From the IMG/VR virus record IMGVR_UViG_3300022555_000016: a stretch of DNA of 20,000 nucleotides. One strand, 5' to 3'. Below, piece by piece: positions 4,849 through 20,000 of this stretch. Positions within the stretch are counted from its first letter, which is position 1; every line of letters starts with the position of its first letter. This DNA comes from an uncultured virus (IMG/VR IMGVR_UViG_3300022555_000016). Lineage: Duplodnaviria; Heunggongvirae; Uroviricota; Caudoviricetes. The position numbers and the translations under genes were made by a program. The notes under the pieces were generated by a model. That model had not been told where the DNA came from. It worked only from the letters and a program-made list of their open reading frames with translations, and ran no database searches.

Positions 4849-5325
4849 TCAAACTACTTTAACTTCCGGCCAGCCCAAGTGCTGTGCTACAACCTGTGCT
4901 TCTTGAAACATCTCCTCCCTGTATCGGAACAATGAATCACTATCTTTACTTACCCAGCCACGAGCAGCTATGTTTAAGGCTGAGTAGTTAGCCTCCAGGA
5001 GCTTAGAATCGTCTACCAACTTTGACCAATTAGACTCAAAGTTAAAATTACCACTACGACAATTCAAGACAGTCTTAGTCCCTACATCAAAAATAGCTTC
5101 AGCCCTAATTTTGATAGATAAAGACAAGGAAGGTTGGTCAGAGACAGGGCTGATTATCGGGTCTACTATGACACCGTTACCGTTTAGAGCAACGACAACC
5201 AAACGGTTACTGTCTAGTAATGACGGTTTACAGGTCAAAATTGTCGTTCCTATCACATTAGAAGTCAGCAAAGTTGCTGCGGAAGCAACTGTACCTATTA
5301 GTACTGAACTTCGAGTAAGATTCAT
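4849..5325 (-). CDS. Hypothetical protein with hydrophobic, signal-like N-terminus
   Basis: 158-aa ORF beginning MNLTRSSVLIGTVASAATLL. Confidence 0.65.
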   Translation of the reverse strand: MNLTRSSVLIGTVASAATLLTSNVIGTTILTCKPSLLDSNRLVVVALNGNGVIVDPIISPVSDQPSLSLSIKIRAEAIFDVGTKTVLNCRSGNFNFESNWSKLVDDSKLLEANYSALNIAARGWVSKDSDSLFRYREEMFQEAQVVAQHLGWPEVKVV

Positions 5326-5329
5326 TATA

Positions 5330-5498
5330 GCTATCTTTCTAGAGTTGATTGTAGCAAATAGTCGCAGGTCTTACGTAAGGTTGTTAAGCTATTATAAGTC
5401 CTGTCTTTAGGCCACAAATTACTGGAGACCTGGGATGTACTACTAGACACCCTTTACCTCGAGTGCATGCACCGGGCTATTAGTTAACCTTAAACAGT
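5330..5498 (-). ncRNA. Candidate omegaRNA/right-end RNA of the solo TnpB
   Basis: Non-coding ~170 nt directly 3' of tnpB; local hairpin GGGTGT-ctagtagt-ACATCC; exact 7-bp long-range inverted pair caggtct (5365-5371) / agacctg (5426-5432). Boundaries uncertain. Confidence 0.4.
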
Positions 5499-7232
5499 TC
5501 AACCGACGTAGTGATTGCCTCTAATTAACCGTGAGTCCTTCTGAATCTGAATCTTGAAAGGTGTTGTTAGTACCTTCTTGACCCAGTCTTGGTCAACCGT
5601 AGGCAATCCCATACGAGTCTTGAACTTTCTAAGGACGTTTACTGAGGATTGAACGTCAGAGTGAACATGAATCCCTTTAGCGGTGATATACAAGCCTCGT
5701 CGGACCCGTGTACCACTGTAATGAGGACTGGGAGCACCCTTAACATAGCATGGAGGGAGATAGTCACCGTCCATAGCAGACCCTTTACTAGTGTGTGATT
5801 CATTCTGTAAGTGGACTGTAATACCTACTGCTACGCACTTGTAGGTTAACATTTCCACGAACCGATTGAAGGGGAGCCTAGTAAAGTTCTTCATACCCTT
5901 AGCAAACTGTTTCCAGTCTAGATTCCTACCGATAACTAGGATTACGACACCCTTCTCCACGAGCAGCTTCACTAGCGTGCTGGAAACGTTGTGGAGGTAG
6001 TGGTCCAGTCTATTTCTAAGCTTATTGTAAGCGGCTTGAATCCTCTTTGAAGAGTTCTGTGGGACTTTAGAAGTTAGAATCTGACTCAACTCCTGATCGT
6101 ACTCAGGAGGCTCGGGGTACAATGAATCGTGAGTAGCAAAAGCTTGCTGAACCATCAAACCTAGCATAAGGTAGTTAAACGGGTTGGACTCAGGGTCTTT
6201 CAACTCCCTAAGACGTTTCCTCTTCAACTCTAGCTCTTCTTTAGCTTTAGTACGTTCGTCTATTAACTGACGTTCCCTAGCCGGTTTAGACCAGTAGAGG
6301 TCCCGTTTAAGCTCTTCTATCTGGTAGTAGGACCAAAGTAATAGAGACTTCAGAATCCAACCGTTAAAGGCTATAGGCTTTGGATTACCTTCGATTACCC
6401 CAGCGGCTGTAACGTTTAACCCTAGGTCAAAGCTTGCTATGGCTTGTAGTTCTTCCTGCTTAGCAGTCCAGTTACCTGTAATCTCTTCGTTGTAGACTAC
6501 TTCTACGTTGTAACCACCTACTATTGGTATGTAGCGTACTTCCGTGATTCCAACGTCTCTTAGGACAGGTTTACCCCTGGAATCCTTCTTTATAGCTTGT
6601 TTACCGTTAGCGTCGGTAACAACTTGAGGTTGCATGTGGAGGGTGAAGGGTATTTCCTGTTTAAACTCAGGATTCTTAGGGCAAAGGGTGATGATTCCCT
6701 TGGGAGCAATAGACTCTGATAACCTAGCGCCTTTGACCTGTTTCCTATCAGAATCAATGATCTGACCACCGGACATGGTCTGGTAGGTAAATTTAACAGG
6801 CTTACGACTGTCAGTCCTACGGATGTACTTATCACCCTTGAATCCAGGCGGTTGAGGGCAAGCCTTGTACTTCTTAGGAAACTGTTTCTGGAGTTCCTTG
6901 CTTTTAGTCCACTCCCAGAAGTCAAACCAAGCTGCTTCGAAGGACTTCCAGTCGTCATGGAGCATCTTAACGGTAGCTTGAGCTACTTTAGCAGGTAACC
7001 GTTGGTACTCTAGAGTCGGTTTTAACAGCTTAACTAGCTCTGGTAGACTAGGAATCCTACGCCGTTGGAAGCCTGGTTTCTTATAGTTGTCTTGGTTGTA
7101 ATTCCAGATTTCTAGTAGAAGGTGGAGACCTACATGATAGAGTTTGGAGGACAAAAAGCAAGTACGATCAATACTCCTATCCCAAGGGTGTTTTGGACCT
7201 ACAAACTGTTTTTGAGTCCTAGTTTCTAACAT
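5499..7232 (-). CDS. tnpB: TnpB-like RNA-guided endonuclease (IS200/IS605 OrfB), rearranged-RuvC type, enlarged
   Basis: RuvC-I IASFDLGLN; LDHYLHNVS bridge region; LVIGRNLDWKQ (canonical Glu replaced by Gly); LTYKC...GITVHLQNESHTSK (relocated Glu); RVRRGLY; RuvC-III HSDVQSSVNVLRK; no CxxC zinc finger. Confidence 0.88.
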   Translation of the reverse strand: MLETRTQKQFVGPKHPWDRSIDRTCFLSSKLYHVGLHLLLEIWNYNQDNYKKPGFQRRRIPSLPELVKLLKPTLEYQRLPAKVAQATVKMLHDDWKSFEAAWFDFWEWTKSKELQKQFPKKYKACPQPPGFKGDKYIRRTDSRKPVKFTYQTMSGGQIIDSDRKQVKGARLSESIAPKGIITLCPKNPEFKQEIPFTLHMQPQVVTDANGKQAIKKDSRGKPVLRDVGITEVRYIPIVGGYNVEVVYNEEITGNWTAKQEELQAIASFDLGLNVTAAGVIEGNPKPIAFNGWILKSLLLWSYYQIEELKRDLYWSKPARERQLIDERTKAKEELELKRKRLRELKDPESNPFNYLMLGLMVQQAFATHDSLYPEPPEYDQELSQILTSKVPQNSSKRIQAAYNKLRNRLDHYLHNVSSTLVKLLVEKGVVILVIGRNLDWKQFAKGMKNFTRLPFNRFVEMLTYKCVAVGITVHLQNESHTSKGSAMDGDYLPPCYVKGAPSPHYSGTRVRRGLYITAKGIHVHSDVQSSVNVLRKFKTRMGLPTVDQDWVKKVLTTPFKIQIQKDSRLIRGNHYVG

Positions 7233-7387
7233 CTCGTGAGTCCAATTTAAAAAGAGTCTAGGAGAAAATTTACAACCAAAATTAAGATTCTGACTCGAGG
7301 TGAATCAGAAAAAGATTCTAGAAAGATTCTTACAAAAAACTTAAGGTTCTTGTAGAAACTAAGTTAAGGTATTCAATACTAGACCCA

Positions 7388-7567
7388 TTAGGTTTTGTCC
7401 TTACCTCGATACTTATCCAACAACTTCTTCTCGTCTTCATCAAGGTGGTCATAAGGAAGACCGCCGGACATGTTGAGTAGAAGATTTTGTAGTTGAGCTT
7501 CTTCTGACTCAGGTTCGGACAATAGGGCACAGTTCTGATCAAGCTCAAGGCCAAAAGTTTCTGACAT
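7388..7567 (-). CDS. Small acidic hypothetical protein (59 aa, not in the ORF track)
   Basis: AAGGAG SD then MSETFGLELDQNCALLSEPESEEAQLQNLLLNMSGGLPYDHLDEDEKKLLDKYRGKDKT*; better supported than the track's 7330..7572 frame. Confidence 0.75.
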   Translation of the reverse strand: MSETFGLELDQNCALLSEPESEEAQLQNLLLNMSGGLPYDHLDEDEKKLLDKYRGKDKT

Positions 7568-7581
7568 GACAAACTCCTTTA

Positions 7582-8055
7582 TTACACCAAATATCTGTAA
7601 CCGCTACAATTAAATCCAAAATTAAGCCACTTTATTTGCTCCTTTGTTAAAGGAGAAAGTAATTCATTAGTCAATATAACTTTACATTTAATAATTAAAA
7701 CCATTAGGTTTACGTAACCTTTTCTCTTAACCTTTATGTCCGACAAGGACCACTCTTCTCCAGTTATCTGGTAATCAGAAACAGATTCAGGAACTATTAG
7801 TTGTTTTCTAGTTACGTAGACCGTAGGATTTTCTATTACTTGCCCCTGACCATACAATAGCTCGCGGATTATAGTTCCGTAGTTTGGTTTTACATGCCCT
7901 GTAATAGCGTACAAGCATTGCTTGACAGTAGGACAAAAGCAAACTCTTCTAGTAACCAAGTCCTCTGGTTTTACTGCGGACCCTGGAATTCGTGCTGACA
8001 GAATAGGATTCTCTCCTAAGTCTTTAGAGGATACATGGTATCTAGTCTTAGCCAT
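7582..8055 (-). CDS. Hypothetical phage protein, possible ADP-ribosyltransferase-like fold
   Basis: Start MAKTRYHVSS at 8055 behind AAGGAAGG. Motifs YHVS, RIP...ED...RVCFCPTVKQCLYAI and D...TGEEW. The fold call is tentative. Confidence 0.6.
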   Translation of the reverse strand: MAKTRYHVSSKDLGENPILSARIPGSAVKPEDLVTRRVCFCPTVKQCLYAITGHVKPNYGTIIRELLYGQGQVIENPTVYVTRKQLIVPESVSDYQITGEEWSLSDIKVKRKGYVNLMVLIIKCKVILTNELLSPLTKEQIKWLNFGFNCSGYRYLV

Positions 8056-12245: not shown

Positions 12246-13259
12246 CTAAGTTTGTTCTCTAAGTTTTGCAGCGTTTAAGTAGTCAATGGCACGTCTGATT
12301 AGTTTAGTCTTGTCTCTAAACTCACCTAACGCTACATTGCATGTGCGACAAGCGTAGCCTCTAATTAAACCTGTAGTGTGGCAATGTTCAATTTCAAGGT
12401 AAGGAACGTCATTACCACAGATAGCGCAAGTGCAGTAAGTAGATGATACTTTATCAAGTAACTTTCTTAAGTACCTACCATGAGCTGCGTTGTTTTTACC
12501 TTTAAAACCATTCAAAACCGTATGGATCATTAGCCTAACCCTAATGGAAAACTTAACGTTCTCTATTACAATTACAGCAATTTTAGACCTTGAAAAGTTA
12601 AGCAGCTTACTAATAGTTTTAGTTGACTTGCCAGATTCCCATAAACCTATTACTTTTTTAGCAAAGTCTATTTTAATAGCTCTACGTGTAGCACTTCCCT
12701 TATCAATACTCTCCTTAAGAGGAGATGCTCTTTTTAAGATATTATTAGGAATACTGTTTTTAGTAAGAGCCTTGCTAACAGTATTCACAGAAATATTAAA
12801 TTTTGCTCCAACTTCAGCCTTGGTAACATTAGGTTCAGAAAGATAAGCTTTACAGATTTGTTTTTCCAGCTTACCTGTCAACTTCCTAGAATTTGGCCTA
12901 CCTGCGGCGTTAACTAGTCTAATAACTATACCGTTTTCTTCTAAGACTTTCCTTATGGTATGCTTGCTTACCCCGTAGTCTTTAGCAAGTTTAACCAAGT
13001 TTTGTAATTTAATATAGTCTTTTGCTATGGCGGCTTCCTCCGCCTCAGAAAAAACATGCCTACCATTAACCATAGGACGTGTAAACTCTTTTTTACGATC
13101 TTTCCTAAACTGCCTACGCTTAACTACCCTTACGCCGTGCTTTGCCCGCACTTTGCGTACAATATAACCACTAACATTACAAATCTTACCTGCTTCTTTT
13201 AAGTTAAAGCAAGAATTATAGGCGTTTATTATAAGAAGCTCATCTTCTTTGGACAACAT
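12246..13259 (-). CDS. Endonuclease VII-domain (His-Me finger) protein with four N-terminal HTH-like repeats
   Basis: C-terminal CAICG...IEHCHTTGLIRGYACRTCNVALG...AIDYL; repeats such as LVKLAKDYGVSKHTIRKVL and AEVGAKFNISVNTVSKAL. Confidence 0.88.
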   Translation of the reverse strand: MLSKEDELLIINAYNSCFNLKEAGKICNVSGYIVRKVRAKHGVRVVKRRQFRKDRKKEFTRPMVNGRHVFSEAEEAAIAKDYIKLQNLVKLAKDYGVSKHTIRKVLEENGIVIRLVNAAGRPNSRKLTGKLEKQICKAYLSEPNVTKAEVGAKFNISVNTVSKALTKNSIPNNILKRASPLKESIDKGSATRRAIKIDFAKKVIGLWESGKSTKTISKLLNFSRSKIAVIVIENVKFSIRVRLMIHTVLNGFKGKNNAAHGRYLRKLLDKVSSTYCTCAICGNDVPYLEIEHCHTTGLIRGYACRTCNVALGEFRDKTKLIRRAIDYLNAAKLREQT

Positions 13260-13287
13260 GTGTAAATCCTTTATACTTAAGGTTAAA

Positions 13288-13989
13288 CTAAAGCGGATAC
13301 TTTAAGTAAAGTATCGCCGATTCCATATAGTCAGTATTGTCTTTAAGCAGCCCTAATCCCGAGTTGCAACAGTAACATAAGTAACCTCTAATAGCACCAC
13401 TTACGTGGCAATGATCTATAGTTAAAGATTCTACTTCTCCACAAATGTCACACGCTCTAGGTTTAATGTCTAGCATACGTCTTAAGTACTCCTTACTAGA
13501 TTCATAACTGGTACCTAATAAATTTGTTGTAACGTAAGTTATTAGGCTTTCAATCTTCTTAGAGAAGTGCCTATTTTCACAAATGTAGTCTGCTACGTTA
13601 TATATAGGCTTCCTAATGTTAGCAGAAATAGTGTCAATATTAACACCTTCATCCCACATAGTTAGTATACTATTAAACGTATCTTTATGCTTACGGACTC
13701 TTTCTTTTAAAGCTTCCTCAGAATTAGCGTGTTTTATAGATTCTTCATGTATAGCTTTACGTTTATTACGTTGAAATTCCGTATTAGTAGGTATTCCAAA
13801 GGAATTTAAAATTCTACTAACTGTAGTACAACCAACATTATATTTAATGGCTAAAGAACTAATGTTAGCGGAGGGAGTTTCATACTCACGACATAAGGCT
13901 ACTTTTTGCTCATAAGATAAAAAGGTTTTAGACTTACTTTTAATAATTGAAGTGTCTAAACAAAAATCTATATCATGTTTCTTAAGCAC
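13288..13989 (-). CDS. Endonuclease VII-domain protein with HTH repeats (main part; N-terminus lies in the upstream frame)
   Basis: CDICG...IDHCHVSGAIRGYLCYCCNSGLGLLKDN...AILYL; HTH ISSLAIKYNVGCTTVSRIL. Confidence 0.88.
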   Translation of the reverse strand: MLKKHDIDFCLDTSIIKSKSKTFLSYEQKVALCREYETPSANISSLAIKYNVGCTTVSRILNSFGIPTNTEFQRNKRKAIHEESIKHANSEEALKERVRKHKDTFNSILTMWDEGVNIDTISANIRKPIYNVADYICENRHFSKKIESLITYVTTNLLGTSYESSKEYLRRMLDIKPRACDICGEVESLTIDHCHVSGAIRGYLCYCCNSGLGLLKDNTDYMESAILYLKYPL

Positions 13990-14115: not shown

Positions 14116-14529
14116 TTACAGTTTGCGTTGAAGTTCAATGAACGCTAGAATCTCTTTAACGGAGGAGGAACCTACTGTAGCAATGAAACAATTCTTGGTC
14201 CACATGCAAGGGATTCGACTCTTTAGGTCAGGAAACTTGGACCGTAGAATCCTAGCTGAACCATCTTTGATCTTATCAACTATAGACATAATAGTTACGG
14301 TTGGGGGTATGTCTACTACTACGTGAACATGGTCGTCTGTAATCTCCACTCCCAATAACACGTAACCAAACTCTACTTGTTTGTCTCTAATGAATCCCTT
14401 TAATACTGTAGAAATACCGTCAACCAAGACATGACGACGATACTTGGGGCAGAACACTATGTGGTACTGACAGGAGAAAACCTTGTTGTTTTCCTTACGG
14501 TAGGCTTTCTTGGGAGGCTTTACCAACAT
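14116..14529 (-). CDS. tnpA: IS200/IS605 Y1 (HUH) transposase TnpA homolog, catalytic Tyr replaced by Phe
   Basis: YHIVFCPKYRR, DHVH (HUH), IPP, KDGSARILR and MWTKNCFIATVG. C-terminal helix reads ILAFIELQ where the family has YIxxQ. Confidence 0.9.
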   Translation of the reverse strand: MLVKPPKKAYRKENNKVFSCQYHIVFCPKYRRHVLVDGISTVLKGFIRDKQVEFGYVLLGVEITDDHVHVVVDIPPTVTIMSIVDKIKDGSARILRSKFPDLKSRIPCMWTKNCFIATVGSSSVKEILAFIELQRKL

Positions 14530-14639: not shown

Positions 14640-14678
14640 AAAAGACAAAAGCCTTAGGAGATTATCTCCTAAGGCTTT
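14640..14678 (-). terminator. Palindromic hairpin/terminator after hfq
   Basis: aaagccttaggaga-tta-tctcctaaggcttt (14648-14678), followed by TGTCTTTTT on the minus strand. Confidence 0.8.
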
Positions 14679-15240: not shown

Positions 15241-18200
15241 TTAACCACATTTAGAGTAACCGCAGTCTAAACAGGATTGGCACCCTTCTTTACGTATTAA
15301 ACTAGGCTGTTGGCACTTTGGGCAAATTTCACCCAGCACCTTAGGCTTAACACTAGAATCAACCTGTTCAATGTTAACTAAACGGTCCTTACTGGTGTCG
15401 TGATAGTTAATACTTTGTAAGTGCTGATGTATGATTATACCGATGTACGCAGTTAAGGATGGGATATATTTACCCTTAACCCATTGACCGCCTTGAGGAG
15501 AGTGCGTCTGCAAAAGCTCTTCAATTACGAAACTAGCATCTGTTCCGTCATCAGCGGAACGACGGAAGATTCCAGATATCATCCGGGTCAAGGCTACGAT
15601 TAACTCTAGGCTCTCTACGGCTTTAGTATTAACAAAAAGCTCAAAGGGAAGAACCTTACCGTCTTCCGAAATTATATTGTTAATAGTTATGTAGTAAGCG
15701 CGTGAAGAGTCTACACCCCACTTTATCTTATAAGACTTACCTTCCAGAACATCAGGCCGCTCAGGCTTACCGTTCTTGCTCATTTTCTTAGTAACCTTTT
15801 CTTCTTGAGGCAAAGCTTTTAGCTCGTCAGCAGTTACTGCTTCAGAAGTGACACTTAATATACTACCACGATTAGGATTGGGGCGATAGGTAGTAACTCC
15901 CTTACACCCCGTATCGTAAGCGGTCATGTATACAGACTTAAACTCATCAAAAGTTATAGACTCAGGACAGTTAACAGTTTTACTAACAGCAGCGTCAATA
16001 TACGTCTGACAAGCAGCTTGCATAGCTAAATGTTCATCAACAGTAAGTTCTAAGGCTGTAACCATACTATTAGGCAAACTGCTTAAAGAAGCAGTTACTG
16101 GGTCAAGCTTGTTTACTGAACAATATAGCTGCCATCCGCGATCACAAACAGCAAACTCCTTAAATGACTCGTCTAACTGGCGAACTTTCCTATAGTACCT
16201 GAAAGAAAAAGTTGGCTCCAACCCTGAAGATACATTACCGTAGTACAGACTAGTTGTACCATTAGGAGCACAGGTCTGTAGCACGGCATTACGGATACCA
16301 GTCTTCCTTATTAACTTTTGAGTATCCTTAGGTAAGTCTTTAAAGAAATGATTATCACACCACCCTTTACTGTACAAAGGAAAGGCTCCACGCTCTACAG
16401 CTAATTCAGCGGACGCGTGATAAACAGTATCACGCCAAGTTTTTAAAGTGGATTTAGTCCAATCTAAAGATTCCGAACTTCCGTAGCGTAAACCTAACGC
16501 TTGTAAAGCACTAGCTAAACCTAAAAACCCTGCGCCAATCCTACGCTTACTATCAGACTCTTCTTCTTGCATAAGTAGAGGCCAATTAGTTATGTCTAAT
16601 ACGTTATCTAGAAACCTCACTCCTAAAGATGCGACCTTCTTCATACGATCTAAATCGAAACTGGCATTTTTAGTAAAAGGTTCACGAACAAAAGACAGTA
16701 GATTTATAGCACCTAAGTCACACGTTCCGTAGGGAGGCAACGGTTCCTCGCCGCAATTTCCGGTTGTAATTCCTACAGCCAGTGCAACTTTGTGGTGTGG
16801 TTTTACTGTACAGCAGTAGACTTCCTTATCGATACCATCTGGTTCAATGGATACCACTTTACTGTACTTAGGCTTAGGAAGCCTATTGCTTACAGTTTTA
16901 TTTGAAAAGTTTTTAAGCCTACTAAACTCAACTTGCTTAGCCAAGTTAATTGAGTCAATTTGACTAAGACCTAACCGCCAAGACTCTTGACAATAATAAT
17001 TACCGCCTGGCATGTCCTTATAACAAGCTGCTTTCATAAGACCTAACTTAGAATTCACACCTAAAGACTTAAGAAGTGTTTGAATATCAATTAAAAAACC
17101 TTTTTCAACGGAGCTTAATTGATAACCAAACCCATTGGTTTTTGAATCTTTAACTGTACCATCTGCGTCAAAAAGACCTGCTAAAAATTCACACTTAGTA
17201 GCATAGTCCCAAGAGAAGCAATACCTAGGCAAACGACTCTTATACTTGGACGCCCAGTTATCTAAACGACCGTCATTATTCCGAACAGTTAGTCCAGACA
17301 TTTGCCATTTAGTAGGCATACTTGGCGATACCGAAAACCCTAATTCAACCTCTGCGTTAGTGTTAACTGCACCAACTTCAAGTTCCGAAGCAGACTCAAT
17401 TAACCTAGAAGCACAACAATGCTTAGGTTCATATAGGAACAGATTTAGGCGTGACTTGCCTGAGTCTCGCGTAGAAGTATGCCCATCGCCTACCAAGAAA
17501 CCCTTAAGATAAGCTGCTGGTTCCCAACGCGTACCATTATACTCTACAGTAGCCAACTCTAACCTATGACCGACTTTCAAATCTTTAGCTTTAAGCTTAG
17601 TACCGTTATCCAAATAAAACGAATGCTCTGTTGTAACTCTCAACGAAGAACCATCATAGAGAGTTACTTTCAACATAGGTTGATTGTTGCCAGTAACCCT
17701 AAAGTTGTCAACGTCAACCCAGGAAGTACCATCCCATATGGTTACTAACTTTCCTACCAACTTTTTAATAGGCTTAGCCCCGTTATTGGTGATAATTAAA
17801 GTATCCGCTGAAAAACAGGGATTAGTTGCAGAGATGACCTCACCACTATACTTTAAGTTGTTTCTGGAGTTTATCTCATCAATAAAAATTACCCCAGGCT
17901 CTGCCATAGAGTAAGTGCTAGTCATAATAGCATCCCAAAGTTCAACCGCAGGCAAAACTTTGTATACATACCAAGGCTTACCGTTTTTTTCTTTAACAGA
18001 AACTACGGTAGTCAGATCAACAGGAGGAATACCAAAACCTAATTCCCAAACACCGCCGGATTTTACAGAAGTCATCAATTTACTAGTGACTAAAACTGAC
18101 ATATTAAAATTTAGCAAAATTCCTGACTTCTGCTTGGCGGTTATAAATTCAAAAATGTCAGGGTGATCATCTGCCATAACTGCCATCATAGCACCTCTCC

Positions 18201-18678
18201 GACTCGACCCAGAGAGAATAGCTTGGCACATAGAATCAAACATTTTCATAAAAGAAATTGGACCACTAGAAGTGGAGCCTGTAGCTTTAACTATAGCACC
18301 TTTAGGACGTAAAGTAGAAAAATCAAAACCAATACCTCCACCTTGTTGCATAGTTAACGCCGCTTCTTTTAACTTTTCCATGATGTCTGCCATAGAATCA
18401 TCTATAGTACCAGACACAAAGCAGTTTAAAGAAGTAGTCTTGTGATCAGTACCAGCACTAGCATGAATCCTACCAGCAGGATTCCATTCGCGGTTAATCA
18501 TTGCTTCTAGCACGAGAGGCATAAACTCATCACGCCTAGTATCCTTTTCATAAACAGCGGAAACGACCCTTTTAAAAGAGTCTTCAATTGACTGTTCATT
18601 ACCTTCCGCCCACCGATACTTCTCGCGCCAAATATAGTCAACAATTGGATCGTAAGGGACAAAATTTGATACTGTCAT
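15241..18678 (-). CDS. nrdJ: Class II (adenosylcobalamin-dependent) ribonucleotide reductase with intein, C-terminal TSCPD-like domain and Zn ribbon
   Basis: PAGRI, NCFV, QQGGGIGFDFSTLRPKG, RRGAMM, NP|CGEEPL, CDLGAINL, APNGTTS, SSGLEP, KGVTTYR; terminal CPKC...EGCQSCLDCGYSKCG. Confidence 0.96.
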   Translation of the reverse strand: MTVSNFVPYDPIVDYIWREKYRWAEGNEQSIEDSFKRVVSAVYEKDTRRDEFMPLVLEAMINREWNPAGRIHASAGTDHKTTSLNCFVSGTIDDSMADIMEKLKEAALTMQQGGGIGFDFSTLRPKGAIVKATGSTSSGPISFMKMFDSMCQAILSGSSRRGAMMAVMADDHPDIFEFITAKQKSGILLNFNMSVLVTSKLMTSVKSGGVWELGFGIPPVDLTTVVSVKEKNGKPWYVYKVLPAVELWDAIMTSTYSMAEPGVIFIDEINSRNNLKYSGEVISATNPCFSADTLIITNNGAKPIKKLVGKLVTIWDGTSWVDVDNFRVTGNNQPMLKVTLYDGSSLRVTTEHSFYLDNGTKLKAKDLKVGHRLELATVEYNGTRWEPAAYLKGFLVGDGHTSTRDSGKSRLNLFLYEPKHCCASRLIESASELEVGAVNTNAEVELGFSVSPSMPTKWQMSGLTVRNNDGRLDNWASKYKSRLPRYCFSWDYATKCEFLAGLFDADGTVKDSKTNGFGYQLSSVEKGFLIDIQTLLKSLGVNSKLGLMKAACYKDMPGGNYYCQESWRLGLSQIDSINLAKQVEFSRLKNFSNKTVSNRLPKPKYSKVVSIEPDGIDKEVYCCTVKPHHKVALAVGITTGNCGEEPLPPYGTCDLGAINLLSFVREPFTKNASFDLDRMKKVASLGVRFLDNVLDITNWPLLMQEEESDSKRRIGAGFLGLASALQALGLRYGSSESLDWTKSTLKTWRDTVYHASAELAVERGAFPLYSKGWCDNHFFKDLPKDTQKLIRKTGIRNAVLQTCAPNGTTSLYYGNVSSGLEPTFSFRYYRKVRQLDESFKEFAVCDRGWQLYCSVNKLDPVTASLSSLPNSMVTALELTVDEHLAMQAACQTYIDAAVSKTVNCPESITFDEFKSVYMTAYDTGCKGVTTYRPNPNRGSILSVTSEAVTADELKALPQEEKVTKKMSKNGKPERPDVLEGKSYKIKWGVDSSRAYYITINNIISEDGKVLPFELFVNTKAVESLELIVALTRMISGIFRRSADDGTDASFVIEELLQTHSPQGGQWVKGKYIPSLTAYIGIIIHQHLQSINYHDTSKDRLVNIEQVDSSVKPKVLGEICPKCQQPSLIRKEGCQSCLDCGYSKCG
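16756..17817 (-). mobile_element. Intein (354 aa) with LAGLIDADG homing endonuclease in nrdJ
   Basis: Begins CFSADT after ATNP; block B VTTEHSF; LAGLIDADG motifs LKGFLVGDG and FLAGLFDADG; block F VYCCTV; ends ITTGN before +1 Cys (CGEEP). Confidence 0.95.
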
Positions 18679-19174: not shown

Positions 19175-19828
19175 CTATTTTAAGGGTTGAATCAAAGTGG
19201 TGCTTCTAGCTTGTAGTCTAACACACCCCTTCTTAACATTAACACTGTTAGACACTACAGTACCGTCCAGCTTAACTACAGAGAAACTTCCGGTAGACCG
19301 TTTACCTTTAATGAATCCGGTGCCTTTAGGAGTCTGAATCAGGTCAAACGTCCTAAAGCCGAACAGCTTACCTCTAGGGTAAATCTTCTCAGACCCTAGA
19401 CCCCAACGTTGTTGGTAGTCACCGTGAGCTACGTGTTTCTTGTAGTACACTGGAGTGTCGGCTAGCACTGAAGTAATCTTGATACCACAAGCTATAGCTA
19501 TAGCGTCGTTAGCGTGGGTCTTAGGTAGACCTAACTTCTCCCGTTTAAGTTTAGTCTGGTAACCAAAGGTCTCAACAAACTCCCAATCAGATTTCTTTAA
19601 TTGACTAGAAATGATTCCCATTTCCGTTGGATGTTTGGTAGCAGACCTTTTAGTCGGTAGAGTTATTTTACCGTCATGAATCTCTTTGTGGCGGTCCTTA
19701 CAGACTGCTATCAGGTTAGCAGGGTCGTTGGTACCACCTTCAGACCTAGGAATCTTGTGGTGAACATGAAGTACCTTAGAGTGCTTACCTGTCTTTACCT
19801 GACACTTGTAATCGTCCCTAGCTAGAAT
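19175..19828 (-). pseudogene. iscB: C-terminal half of IscB (HNH, RuvC-III, C-terminal domain), interrupted at the start of the HNH
   Basis: The frame extends upstream of the track's ATG: ILARDDYKCQ...LHVHHKIPRSEGGTNDPANLIAVCKDRHKEIH (HNH), ETFGYQTK, KTHANDAIAIA (RuvC-III), LFGFRTFDL...GFIKGKRSTGSF. Confidence 0.88.
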
Positions 19829-19965
19829 GTGAACAACTCCGGGCTTAAAGCCCTGGAGCTTCCCCCTCGCGGGTGGGAAGTTACTCTTTCGACGAGGACT
19901 GCTGACCCTATCGGGTAGTCTTACACCCTCTCCAGAGTCGTGAATTACCAGTATACCTCCGGTAT
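19829..19965 (-). ncRNA. Right end/omegaRNA scaffold of a TnpB-type IS200/IS605 element inserted in iscB
   Basis: Minus strand ACCGGAGG..CTGGTAATTCACGACTCTGGAGAGGGTGTAAGAC...GCAGTCCTCG..GAAAG, stems ACCC-GATA-GGGT and CCC-GCGA-GGG, terminal hairpin CTCCAGGGC-TTTAA-GCCCGGAG (19858-19837), end motif TTCAC (19833-19829). This follows the known TnpB right-end RNA layout. Confidence 0.8.
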
Positions 19966-20000
19966 TTCTCAGAGACTCAGATTCTTTTTGACATAGAACC

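Follow-up and report, generated by a model that had tools for sequence, protein, structure and literature searches.

As described in PMC10691335, the guides of TnpB proteins are encoded just beyond the transposon end, and multiple element copies per genome are common. In characterised TnpB systems the flank-derived guide directs cutting of element-free sites, and the subsequent repair restores the element (PMC10691335, PMC10055086, PMC10690162). The largest clade with a rearranged active site, RIIr-5, has replaced the RuvC-II Glu by Gly, carries a substitute Glu at beta5 and is predicted to be active (PMC10691335). We analysed a stretch of 20,000 nucleotides (nt), hereafter the window, from an uncultured virus (IMG/VR record IMGVR_UViG_3300022555_000016), in which a minus-strand gene encodes an enlarged TnpB of 577 amino acids (aa). 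An earlier note, made from the sequence alone, had described this gene as a solo TnpB domesticated by a phage, a reading suggested by the large size and the absence of a neighbouring transposase. The finding of a multi-copy element corrects that reading. The region from about 5359 to 7381 on the minus strand probably represents a copy of an IS200/IS605-type 'OMEGA' element without transposase, resident in a large uncultivated freshwater phage and made up of a left end of ~150 nt containing an imperfect palindrome, an enlarged and intact tnpB, an omegaRNA scaffold of ~140 nt in the 3' untranslated region (UTR), and a guide supplied by the flank. The element is an enlarged variant of the already known mobile TnpB–omegaRNA type; the reading as a solo domesticated nuclease is not supported. 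Its parts are as follows.

5359–7381, minus strand: whole repeated element of ~2.02 kb (left end, tnpB and omegaRNA-like right end), delimited by blastn and end alignments
7233–7381, minus strand: left end, with the conserved start T(A/G)TTGAATAC
7278–7335, minus strand: imperfect palindrome in the left end, with three AAGATTCT copies (AGAATCTT on the gene strand) and a GATTC-N11-GAATC hairpin (7286–7306)
5499–7232, minus strand: tnpB open reading frame (ORF), 577 aa
5359–5498, minus strand: omegaRNA-like scaffold at the right end, recognised by conservation and a covariance model and ending in GCGACTA
5338–5358, minus strand: candidate guide, the flank directly 3' of the right end, unique to copy 1 and of assumed length

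A scan of metagenome contigs detected a 129-kb phage-like contig that was 100% identical to the window over 17,232 nt (L001). The same contig carried two further copies of the element (L002), with 91.7% identity over 2025 nt and 89.7% identity over 2024 nt by blastn, both of which correspond to window positions 5358–7381/7380. End alignments revealed that the similarity among the three copies stops abruptly at both ends and that the flanks are unrelated; the right end of all copies reads GCGACTA and is followed by complete divergence. The boundaries are uncertain by 1–3 nt (5358/5359 at the right end, 7378–7381 at the left end). The tnpB ORF of copy 2 is intact and encodes 577 aa, and this copy lies antisense to its neighbouring genes. 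Thus, the description of the gene as solo holds inside the window but not on the 129-kb contig, where there are three copies. The earlier note had also named near-identical, multi-copy insertion sequences with the same insertions in the protein as the mark of an ordinary mobile TnpB. This is essentially what was found, although the copies are 90–92% identical rather than near-identical, and a sharply bounded multi-copy element with the same insertions and copy-specific flanks speaks against domestication.

Contigs of four metagenome runs were aligned with the window. The depth was ~8 in the flanks versus 13–36 within the element in run X1, and ~27 versus 45–168 in run X2, so that the element was covered ~3-fold over its flanks in these two lake metagenomes. 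Loose ends of contigs lay exactly at 5358/5359 and at 7380 (the latter in run X6), and led into other flanks, namely those of copy 2 and at least two that were absent from the fetched loci. Each of several contigs of 97–208 kb had entries for two or three different members of the 90%-identity protein cluster, which has 17 members with mosaic C-termini. One contig each in X1 and X2 contained a joint from 5398 to 6895 that omits 1496 nt of tnpB; an internally deleted copy was considered on this basis and rejected as too weak, the shorter side of the joint being only 24 nt. In IMG/VR there was no relative of the 577-aa protein and no match to the flank of copy 1, only a 32%-identical relative of the gene downstream of tnpB, and megablast of 5000–7600 against the phage collection gave no match.

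A second subfamily was represented by two loci. L003 (9968–11861), on another phage-like contig, encodes an enlarged TnpB of 580 aa with 42% aa identity, and the partial L004 (1–975), on a further phage-like contig, is 91.5% identical to L003 over 979 nt. This subfamily has the same left-end start, AGAATCTTTCTAGA motif, RNA core and GCGACTA terminus, after which its flanks are unrelated. A left-end variant of the L003 type was also present among the run contigs, with a loose end at 7320. In a cluster look-up, the largest contig listed was 254,081 for both the L003-type protein and the N-terminal fragment of copy 3, which suggests that one genome holds both subfamilies.

The left end is ~84–92% identical among the copies (83.7% to copy 2). 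Both the three upstream AAGATTCT copies and the hairpin noticed earlier are present, the former at 7284, 7312 and 7323 on the plus strand and the latter at 7288–7310. The window contains four AAGATTCT copies versus 1.13 expected, and 8 of 200 shuffles reached four. The palindrome arms of copy 2 form a perfect DNA hairpin of 17 base pairs (bp), copy 3 is missing one 11-nt AGAATCTT unit, and the AGAATCTTTCTAGA part of the palindrome is also found in L003. The 21-nt GATTC-N11-GAATC segment is exactly inverted in copy 3 (L002:19509–19529 against window 7286–7306, 100% reverse match), which corresponds to a flip of the segment about its own inverted arms. A YTAR tetramer was found 0–2 nt before the left-end start in 5/5 contexts, comprising copies 1–3, a run-derived copy and L003 (CTAG, TTAA, TTAA, CTAG and TTAG). 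YTAR is regarded only as a candidate target or transposon-associated motif (TAM). A promoter and terminator scan gave results no better than those of shuffled sequences.

At the right end, the 138–141 nt located 3' of the stop codon were 97.1% identical in both other copies versus ~90% for the element overall. The predicted scaffold consists of the following helices.

5486–5489 with 5360–5363, minus strand: closing stem
5456–5477, minus strand: hairpin P1
5433–5452, minus strand: hairpin P2
5409–5431, minus strand: hairpin P3
5364–5404, minus strand: hairpin P4

Minimum free energy (MFE) folds of both subfamilies gave this same layout of a closing stem and four hairpins, and P1 and P4 differ in sequence between the subfamilies while keeping the same shape. 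A covariance model of the 3' region (R1), which had been proposed in the earlier note, was built from the three copies and found the right ends of L003 and L004 with 32.3 and 31 bits (E ~1e-7). It gave no match in the 14 searched loci of more distant relatives (of 74 fetched besides L001–L004). In the R1 alignment 95% of the cells were paired, and 14 of 40 pairs were changed on both sides; shuffles gave 6.5 ± 1.7 such pairs (0/500 reached 14) and slid controls no more than 5, these counts being drawn from four distinct sequences of two lineages that had been aligned by fitting to the model. With a plain MAFFT alignment as input, RNAalifold returned P2 and P3 only, because P1 and P4 were misaligned there. 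Since the ORF shows no unusual conservation over its final ~100 nt (89–93%), the scaffold seems confined to the 3' UTR. Of the structured non-coding region of ~170 nt proposed earlier, covariation thus supports 5359–5498, which is the only part of the 173-nt 3' gap inside the element, and the remainder lies outside. No Rfam family or tRNA was found in the window, and the conserved RNA core pattern had no match in IMG/VR and none in GTDB genomes.

The three copies, L003, L004 and one run-derived copy all diverge directly after GCGACTA, and the flank past the right end is likely to be the guide. In copy 1 this candidate guide runs into the leader (5326–5358) of the next gene, whose ATG is at 5325. 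No two copies have the same sequence at the guide position, which fits a transposon guide derived from the flank and not a fixed guide against a host or phage gene. From sequence comparison, 5359–5498 together with the copy-specific flank would constitute an omegaRNA-like scaffold with a predicted guide; transcription of the scaffold and its binding by TnpB are predictions as well.

The absence of an adjacent tnpA and of a CRISPR array, both reported earlier, was confirmed. The window contains a single Y1 tnpA gene.

14116–14529, minus strand: Y1 (IS200-type) tnpA, Pfam Y1_Tnp 103 bits, 6.9 kb from tnpB

No tnpA was present inside or adjoining any of the three element copies, and the left-end and right-end sequences were not found around the window tnpA or elsewhere in the window. 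The HUH motif of this TnpA is intact, and its F130 aligns to the catalytic Y127 of IS608 TnpA, a position occupied by Tyr in 10/10 nearest TnpA homologues. Since exactly the same protein with this Phe is on record for 22 contigs, F130 is not an assembly error, and the window TnpA may be a dead or repurposed transposase. In the metagenome-contig scan, a Y1 tnpA adjoined the tnpB match in 7 of 77 other loci, indicating that the wider group is of the IS200/IS605 type and mostly transposase-less. Neither a CRISPR array nor tandem repeats were found in the 20-kb window, and there were no cas-like Pfam or PHROG matches among the neighbouring genes.

Several observations weigh against a mobile element. 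No active transposase was found within the 20-kb window, the TnpA there having Phe at the position of the catalytic Tyr. An empty-site allele, that is, a joint skipping the whole element, was sought in the contigs of the four runs and none was found, nor did IMG/VR yield one, as it gave no relative of the protein, no RNA-core match and no copy-1-flank match; mobility was hence deduced from copy number and flanks only. The copies are 8–10% diverged, so transposition may be ancient rather than ongoing. The tnpB of copy 3 (L002:19582–21315, plus strand) is split into ORFs of 114 aa and 425 aa, and these pieces recur as separate proteins (the P0020 cluster on 25 contigs, and 425-aa proteins as five members of cluster 1). 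In L003 the palindrome of the left end is not preserved, the candidate TAM was derived from five contexts with a variable offset, and the covariation comes from two lineages. The MFE stability of the 3' region (295 nt) was not above that of shuffles (z = −0.51; 63/200 fold as well), and because MFE folding was not significant, support for the 3' structure was taken from covariation.

Some of these observations would fit a phage weapon, in which the TnpB–RNA pair has been kept to cut host or competitor DNA at a selected target and is no longer transposon-like: no active transposase is nearby (F130 in TnpA), and the copies, at 8–10% divergence, are not near-identical. Purifying selection on the paralogues (described below), the very high conservation of the RNA region and the occurrence of the family only on phage-like contigs point in the same direction. 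We consider such a weapon unlikely, however, because three identically built, sharply bounded copies are found in contexts unrelated to one another, with more contexts in other runs, and because what stands at the guide position of each copy is no more than the adjoining DNA. Moreover, copy 3 is decayed, as seen in selfish elements, and no conserved partner gene adjoins the copies. The earlier suggestion that the nuclease is aimed at host or rival phage DNA is retained only weakly, in that a homing TnpB would cut co-infecting genomes without the insertion, whereas a guide position that differs per copy argues against it.

The protein itself was examined in an alignment of 95 sequences, of which 88 are of ordinary size (377–524 aa). 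The positions to which the comparison refers are listed here.

6426–6428, minus strand: codon of D269 in RuvC-I (FDLG)
5928–5930, minus strand: codon of G435 at the canonical RuvC-II site
5799–5801, minus strand: codon of the relocated E478 (NESHTS)
5655–5657, minus strand: codon of D526 in RuvC-III (HSD)
6066–6284, minus strand: 73-aa clade-specific helical insertion (aa 317–389), occupied in <20% of the 88 ordinary relatives and in 6/6 enlarged relatives
6558–6915, minus strand: six small clade-specific insertions in the REC/WED half (aa 106–115, 135–139, 164–177, 188–192, 196–211 and 217–225), from occupancy in the 88 ordinary-size relatives

The 577-aa protein matched the Pfam families OrfB_IS605 (PF01385; 36.8 bits, cut-off 30.5) and Cas12f1-like_TNB (PF07282; 29.4 bits, cut-off 26.3), and passed the NCBIfam model guided_TnpB (NF040570) marginally, with 100.7 bits versus a cut-off of 100. 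As the earlier note had stated, the acidic residues of FDLG, NESHTS and HSD are all present: D269, E478 and D526 are invariant across the 95-sequence alignment, and the catalytic D/E/D residues are retained in the 42%-identical relatives. At the canonical RuvC-II position all sequences (95/95) have Gly (G435), within the strand motif LVIG(K/R)N..WKQ. A zinc finger (CxxC...CxxC, CCCC) was sought between E478 and D526 and none was found, in agreement with the earlier description; the only cysteines of the protein are at 25, 125, 184, 466 and 495, and C495 is the sole one between these two residues. The alignment revealed that the finger is also missing in the ordinary-size relatives. Since some large TnpB branches have lost the zinc finger (PMC10691335), its absence does not disqualify the protein from the TnpB family. 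The rearrangement of RuvC and the missing zinc finger are clade-wide in the 88 ordinary-size relatives; they are neither special to this gene nor marks of domestication.

A model of TnpB was predicted with AlphaFold2 from the 95-sequence alignment, with a predicted local distance difference test (pLDDT) of 90.3 and a predicted template modelling score (pTM) of 0.86. In the N-terminal part of RuvC, beta1–3 are placed at 264–290, including D269, and are followed by a helix at 292–315. Downstream of the insert are a helix at 396–426, beta4 at 429–435 ending in G435, and a helix at 455–468, whereas the C-terminal part comprises beta5 at 472–476, then E478, the TNB region, and a helix at 525–540 carrying D526. 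The modelled secondary structure matches the RNase-H layout described for ISDra2 TnpB in PMC10097598. The top structural match (VIA-align) was ISDra2 TnpB (8exa_A; Z 16.5, root-mean-square deviation 3.4, 325 aligned residues), followed by several Cas12f chains with Z ~16 and ISFba1 TnpB with Z 15.8; the matches cover only 325–375 residues, and the remainder consists of insertions. Foldseek of the model against AsCas12f gave E 2.6e-12. When the single protein was searched against PDB sequences with phmmer no match was obtained, and the 95-sequence profile was needed. Between the tnpB genes of copies 1 and 2, the ratio of nonsynonymous to synonymous substitution rates (dN/dS) was 0.155 (dS 0.27, dN 0.04), which indicates that the tnpB paralogues are under purifying selection. 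These comparisons mark the 577-aa protein as a candidate TnpB-family RNA-guided nuclease with an intact catalytic triad.

An RNA-guided DNA binder or regulator of the TldR or Cas12m kind, rather than a nuclease, would agree with the non-canonical layout of the active site and with the overlap between the copy-1 guide and the leader of the downstream gene (5326–5358). It appears highly improbable, as all three acidic residues are retained while nuclease-dead lineages lost them (PMC10691335), and as the element is multi-copy and copy 2 is antisense to its neighbours. The copies might instead be a decaying relic, that is, inactive remnants whose TnpB no longer cuts and whose conservation is due to gene conversion. 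The identity between copies 1 and 2 is mosaic (83–100% per 102-nt window), as are the C-termini of the protein cluster, which suggests gene conversion; copy 3 is split, and the protein has neither the canonical RuvC-II Glu nor a zinc finger. A relic is nevertheless quite unlikely, because a dN/dS of 0.155 at a dS of 0.27 reflects selection on the protein, the D/E/D residues are invariant even in 42%-identical relatives, and compensatory changes preserve the RNA helices across the subfamilies. In addition, the combination of Gly and a substitute Glu is conserved as a trait in a large clade for which activity is predicted (PMC10691335).

The enlargement of the protein is explained by insertions. 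The insert of ~80 aa after RuvC-I and the extra loops in the N-terminal half that were noticed earlier correspond to the 73-aa insertion (317–389) and the six small ones, respectively. The former is located in the RuvC RNase-H fold between the helices at 292–315 and 396–426, after beta3 and before beta4. Described earlier as coiled-coil-like, it was modelled by AlphaFold2 as two helices (318–342 and 351–370) and a loop to 395, with pLDDT means of 89–97 in 10-residue blocks across aa 311–390. The insert length varies among the enlarged TnpBs, P0019 having ~40 additional residues there. Judging from its position next to RuvC helix 1, the 73-aa insert probably adds contacts to the guide–target duplex or the RNA. 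In Cas12b, REC2 lies between RuvC-I and RuvC-II, which would be the same topological site.

Enlarged TnpBs are rare. A HMMER search of 1.84 billion representatives yielded 2182 matches at E ≤ 0.001, among which there were only four full-length enlarged clusters at 50% identity: the cluster of the query itself (representative P0002), P0018, P0019 and the P0026 cluster (full-length member P0183). One extra enlarged cluster, P0020, is a fragment. The enlarged proteins are of 574–610 aa, whereas the remaining top matches range from 196 to 804 aa, are mostly ~400–500 aa, and align best over residues ~380–560. When the 95 sequences were placed in a quick maximum-likelihood tree, all seven proteins of at least 560 aa grouped together among ordinary-size sequences, with a Shimodaira–Hasegawa-like approximate likelihood ratio test (SH-aLRT) value of 100. 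By this comparison, the enlarged TnpBs are one small, rare and separate clade. A search of the literature found no paper on this clade, although the supplementary tables of PMC10691335 might already include it.

The gene content of the window resembles phage DNA, with a ribonucleotide reductase containing an intein, an Ant/Bro protein, HNH and endonuclease-VII genes and other PHROG families. Two neighbouring genes have 24–32% identical relatives in phages of Proteobacteria with genomes of 200–280 kb, and no close phage genome was found in the phage collection. The stretch was found in eight metagenome runs, all of lake or freshwater origin and belonging to three studies; no RNA run was listed for it. 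The following genes, all on the minus strand, were also observed. The large subunit of ribonucleotide reductase (15241–18678, 1145 aa) carries an intein with a LAGLIDADG homing-endonuclease domain, and an HNH endonuclease gene is situated at the window end (19175–19999), in a region dense in homing-type nucleases. Two adjacent genes whose products combine helix-turn-helix and endonuclease-VII domains (12246–13989) lie beside tnpA in a stretch with a GC content of 0.34–0.36 versus ~0.42. A gene for an Hfq-like phage protein (14749–14985, Pfam Hfq 52.4 bits) is followed by a perfect hairpin terminator at ~14640–14672, as read from the sequence. An ATP-grasp protein of the R2K clade (Pfam R2K_3, R2K_2) and a weak DprA-like match (DNA_processg_A, below the cut-off) were found at 1195–2040 and 614–1102.

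By analogy with characterised systems, TnpB would bind the scaffold and recognise a short motif beside the left end, for which YTAR is the candidate. It would then cut DNA matching the flank-derived guide, at sites or in co-infecting phage genomes that lack the element, and recombinational repair would copy the element back in. Movement to new sites would need a Y1 transposase in trans. As the resident TnpA has no catalytic Tyr, the element may at present spread by homing and recombination.

What makes the element notable is that its TnpB is rare and carries a helical insertion, that several copies of the element occur in a jumbo-type freshwater phage, and that a TnpA without the tyrosine is encoded nearby; the rare enlarged clade now has mapped element ends, an RNA scaffold, and a candidate guide and TAM. 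More speculatively, a still-mobile phage-borne TnpB lineage may have independently acquired a REC2-like module of two helices, set between RuvC helices 1 and 2, as well as a compact omegaRNA confined to the 3' UTR. It would then represent a living 'proto-Cas12' stage, with protein accretion before CRISPR association, and the copies in each jumbo-phage genome may be kept and spread by TnpB homing between co-infecting genomes without an active transposase (the resident TnpA having Phe for Tyr); we put this forward tentatively, as a proposal with a minor chance of being right. If the helical insert lengthens or stabilises guide–target pairing, REC2-like accretion would be possible inside transposons, before CRISPR capture, and enlarged TnpBs could then also serve as compact editors with better specificity. 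Two TnpB subfamilies in one lytic-type jumbo-phage lineage with a conserved tyrosine-less TnpA would offer a natural system for asking whether homing alone sustains such elements.

How, then, does the element compare with the systems described so far? Nuclease-dead TnpB derivatives of the TldR type have lost their catalytic residues, occupy a fixed single-copy locus and have a conserved partner gene, none of which applies here. Phages that carry tnpB are known, among them cyanophage A-1(L) (bioRxiv 10.64898/2026.02.14.705889), Lak megaphages, and Staphylococcus and Nodularia phages, and rearranged TnpB branches are described as enriched in viruses (PMC10691335). By tblastn, 28 phage records matched the 577-aa protein, but only at residues ~380–560 with 26–41% identity; 0/28 reached 80% query coverage, and no phage record matched the element at the DNA level.

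With Cas12 effectors that have REC2 insertions (Cas12m2, Cas12b), the 577-aa TnpB shares the gain of alpha-helical or coiled-coil segments in a TnpB-like core. Unlike those effectors, it is accompanied by no CRISPR array or cas genes, and its gene lies within a repeated transposon-like element. The insert of Cas12m2 is located in REC1, whereas that of the 577-aa TnpB is in RuvC. The REC2 of Cas12m2, a coiled coil, lengthens the recognised duplex from 12 to 17 bp (PMC10442227, PMC10097598), and helical accretion is described on the path from TnpB to Cas12b (PMC10691335).

The ISDra2 and ISFba1 TnpBs (8exa, 8h1j, 8iaz) are the best structural matches (Z 16.5, 16.1 and 15.8) and have in common with the 577-aa protein the WED–REC–RuvC–TNB order, a 3' RNA, here a predicted one, that ends at the right end and continues into the guide, and the IS200/IS605 type. 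Those proteins are ~400 aa long and retain the canonical Glu together with a CCCC zinc finger (PMC10097598), and are only 14–15% identical to the 577-aa TnpB. In contrast to these systems, the conserved RNA here begins at about the stop codon, with no visible extension into the ORF.

The layout of RuvC is of the RIIr-5 type according to the description in PMC10691335. As in RIIr-5 TnpBs, G435 stands in place of Glu, E478 follows beta5 and the RuvC-I and RuvC-III Asp residues are canonical; the 88 ordinary-size relatives likewise have the Gly/relocated-Glu layout and no zinc finger. RIIr-5 TnpBs, too, belong to transposons and have a 3' RNA whose guide comes from the flank, and the ordinary-size relatives share all of these traits. 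What distinguishes the present protein from them is the ~130 extra residues, made up of the 73-aa two-helix insert and the six small REC/WED inserts, and its place in a separate clade.

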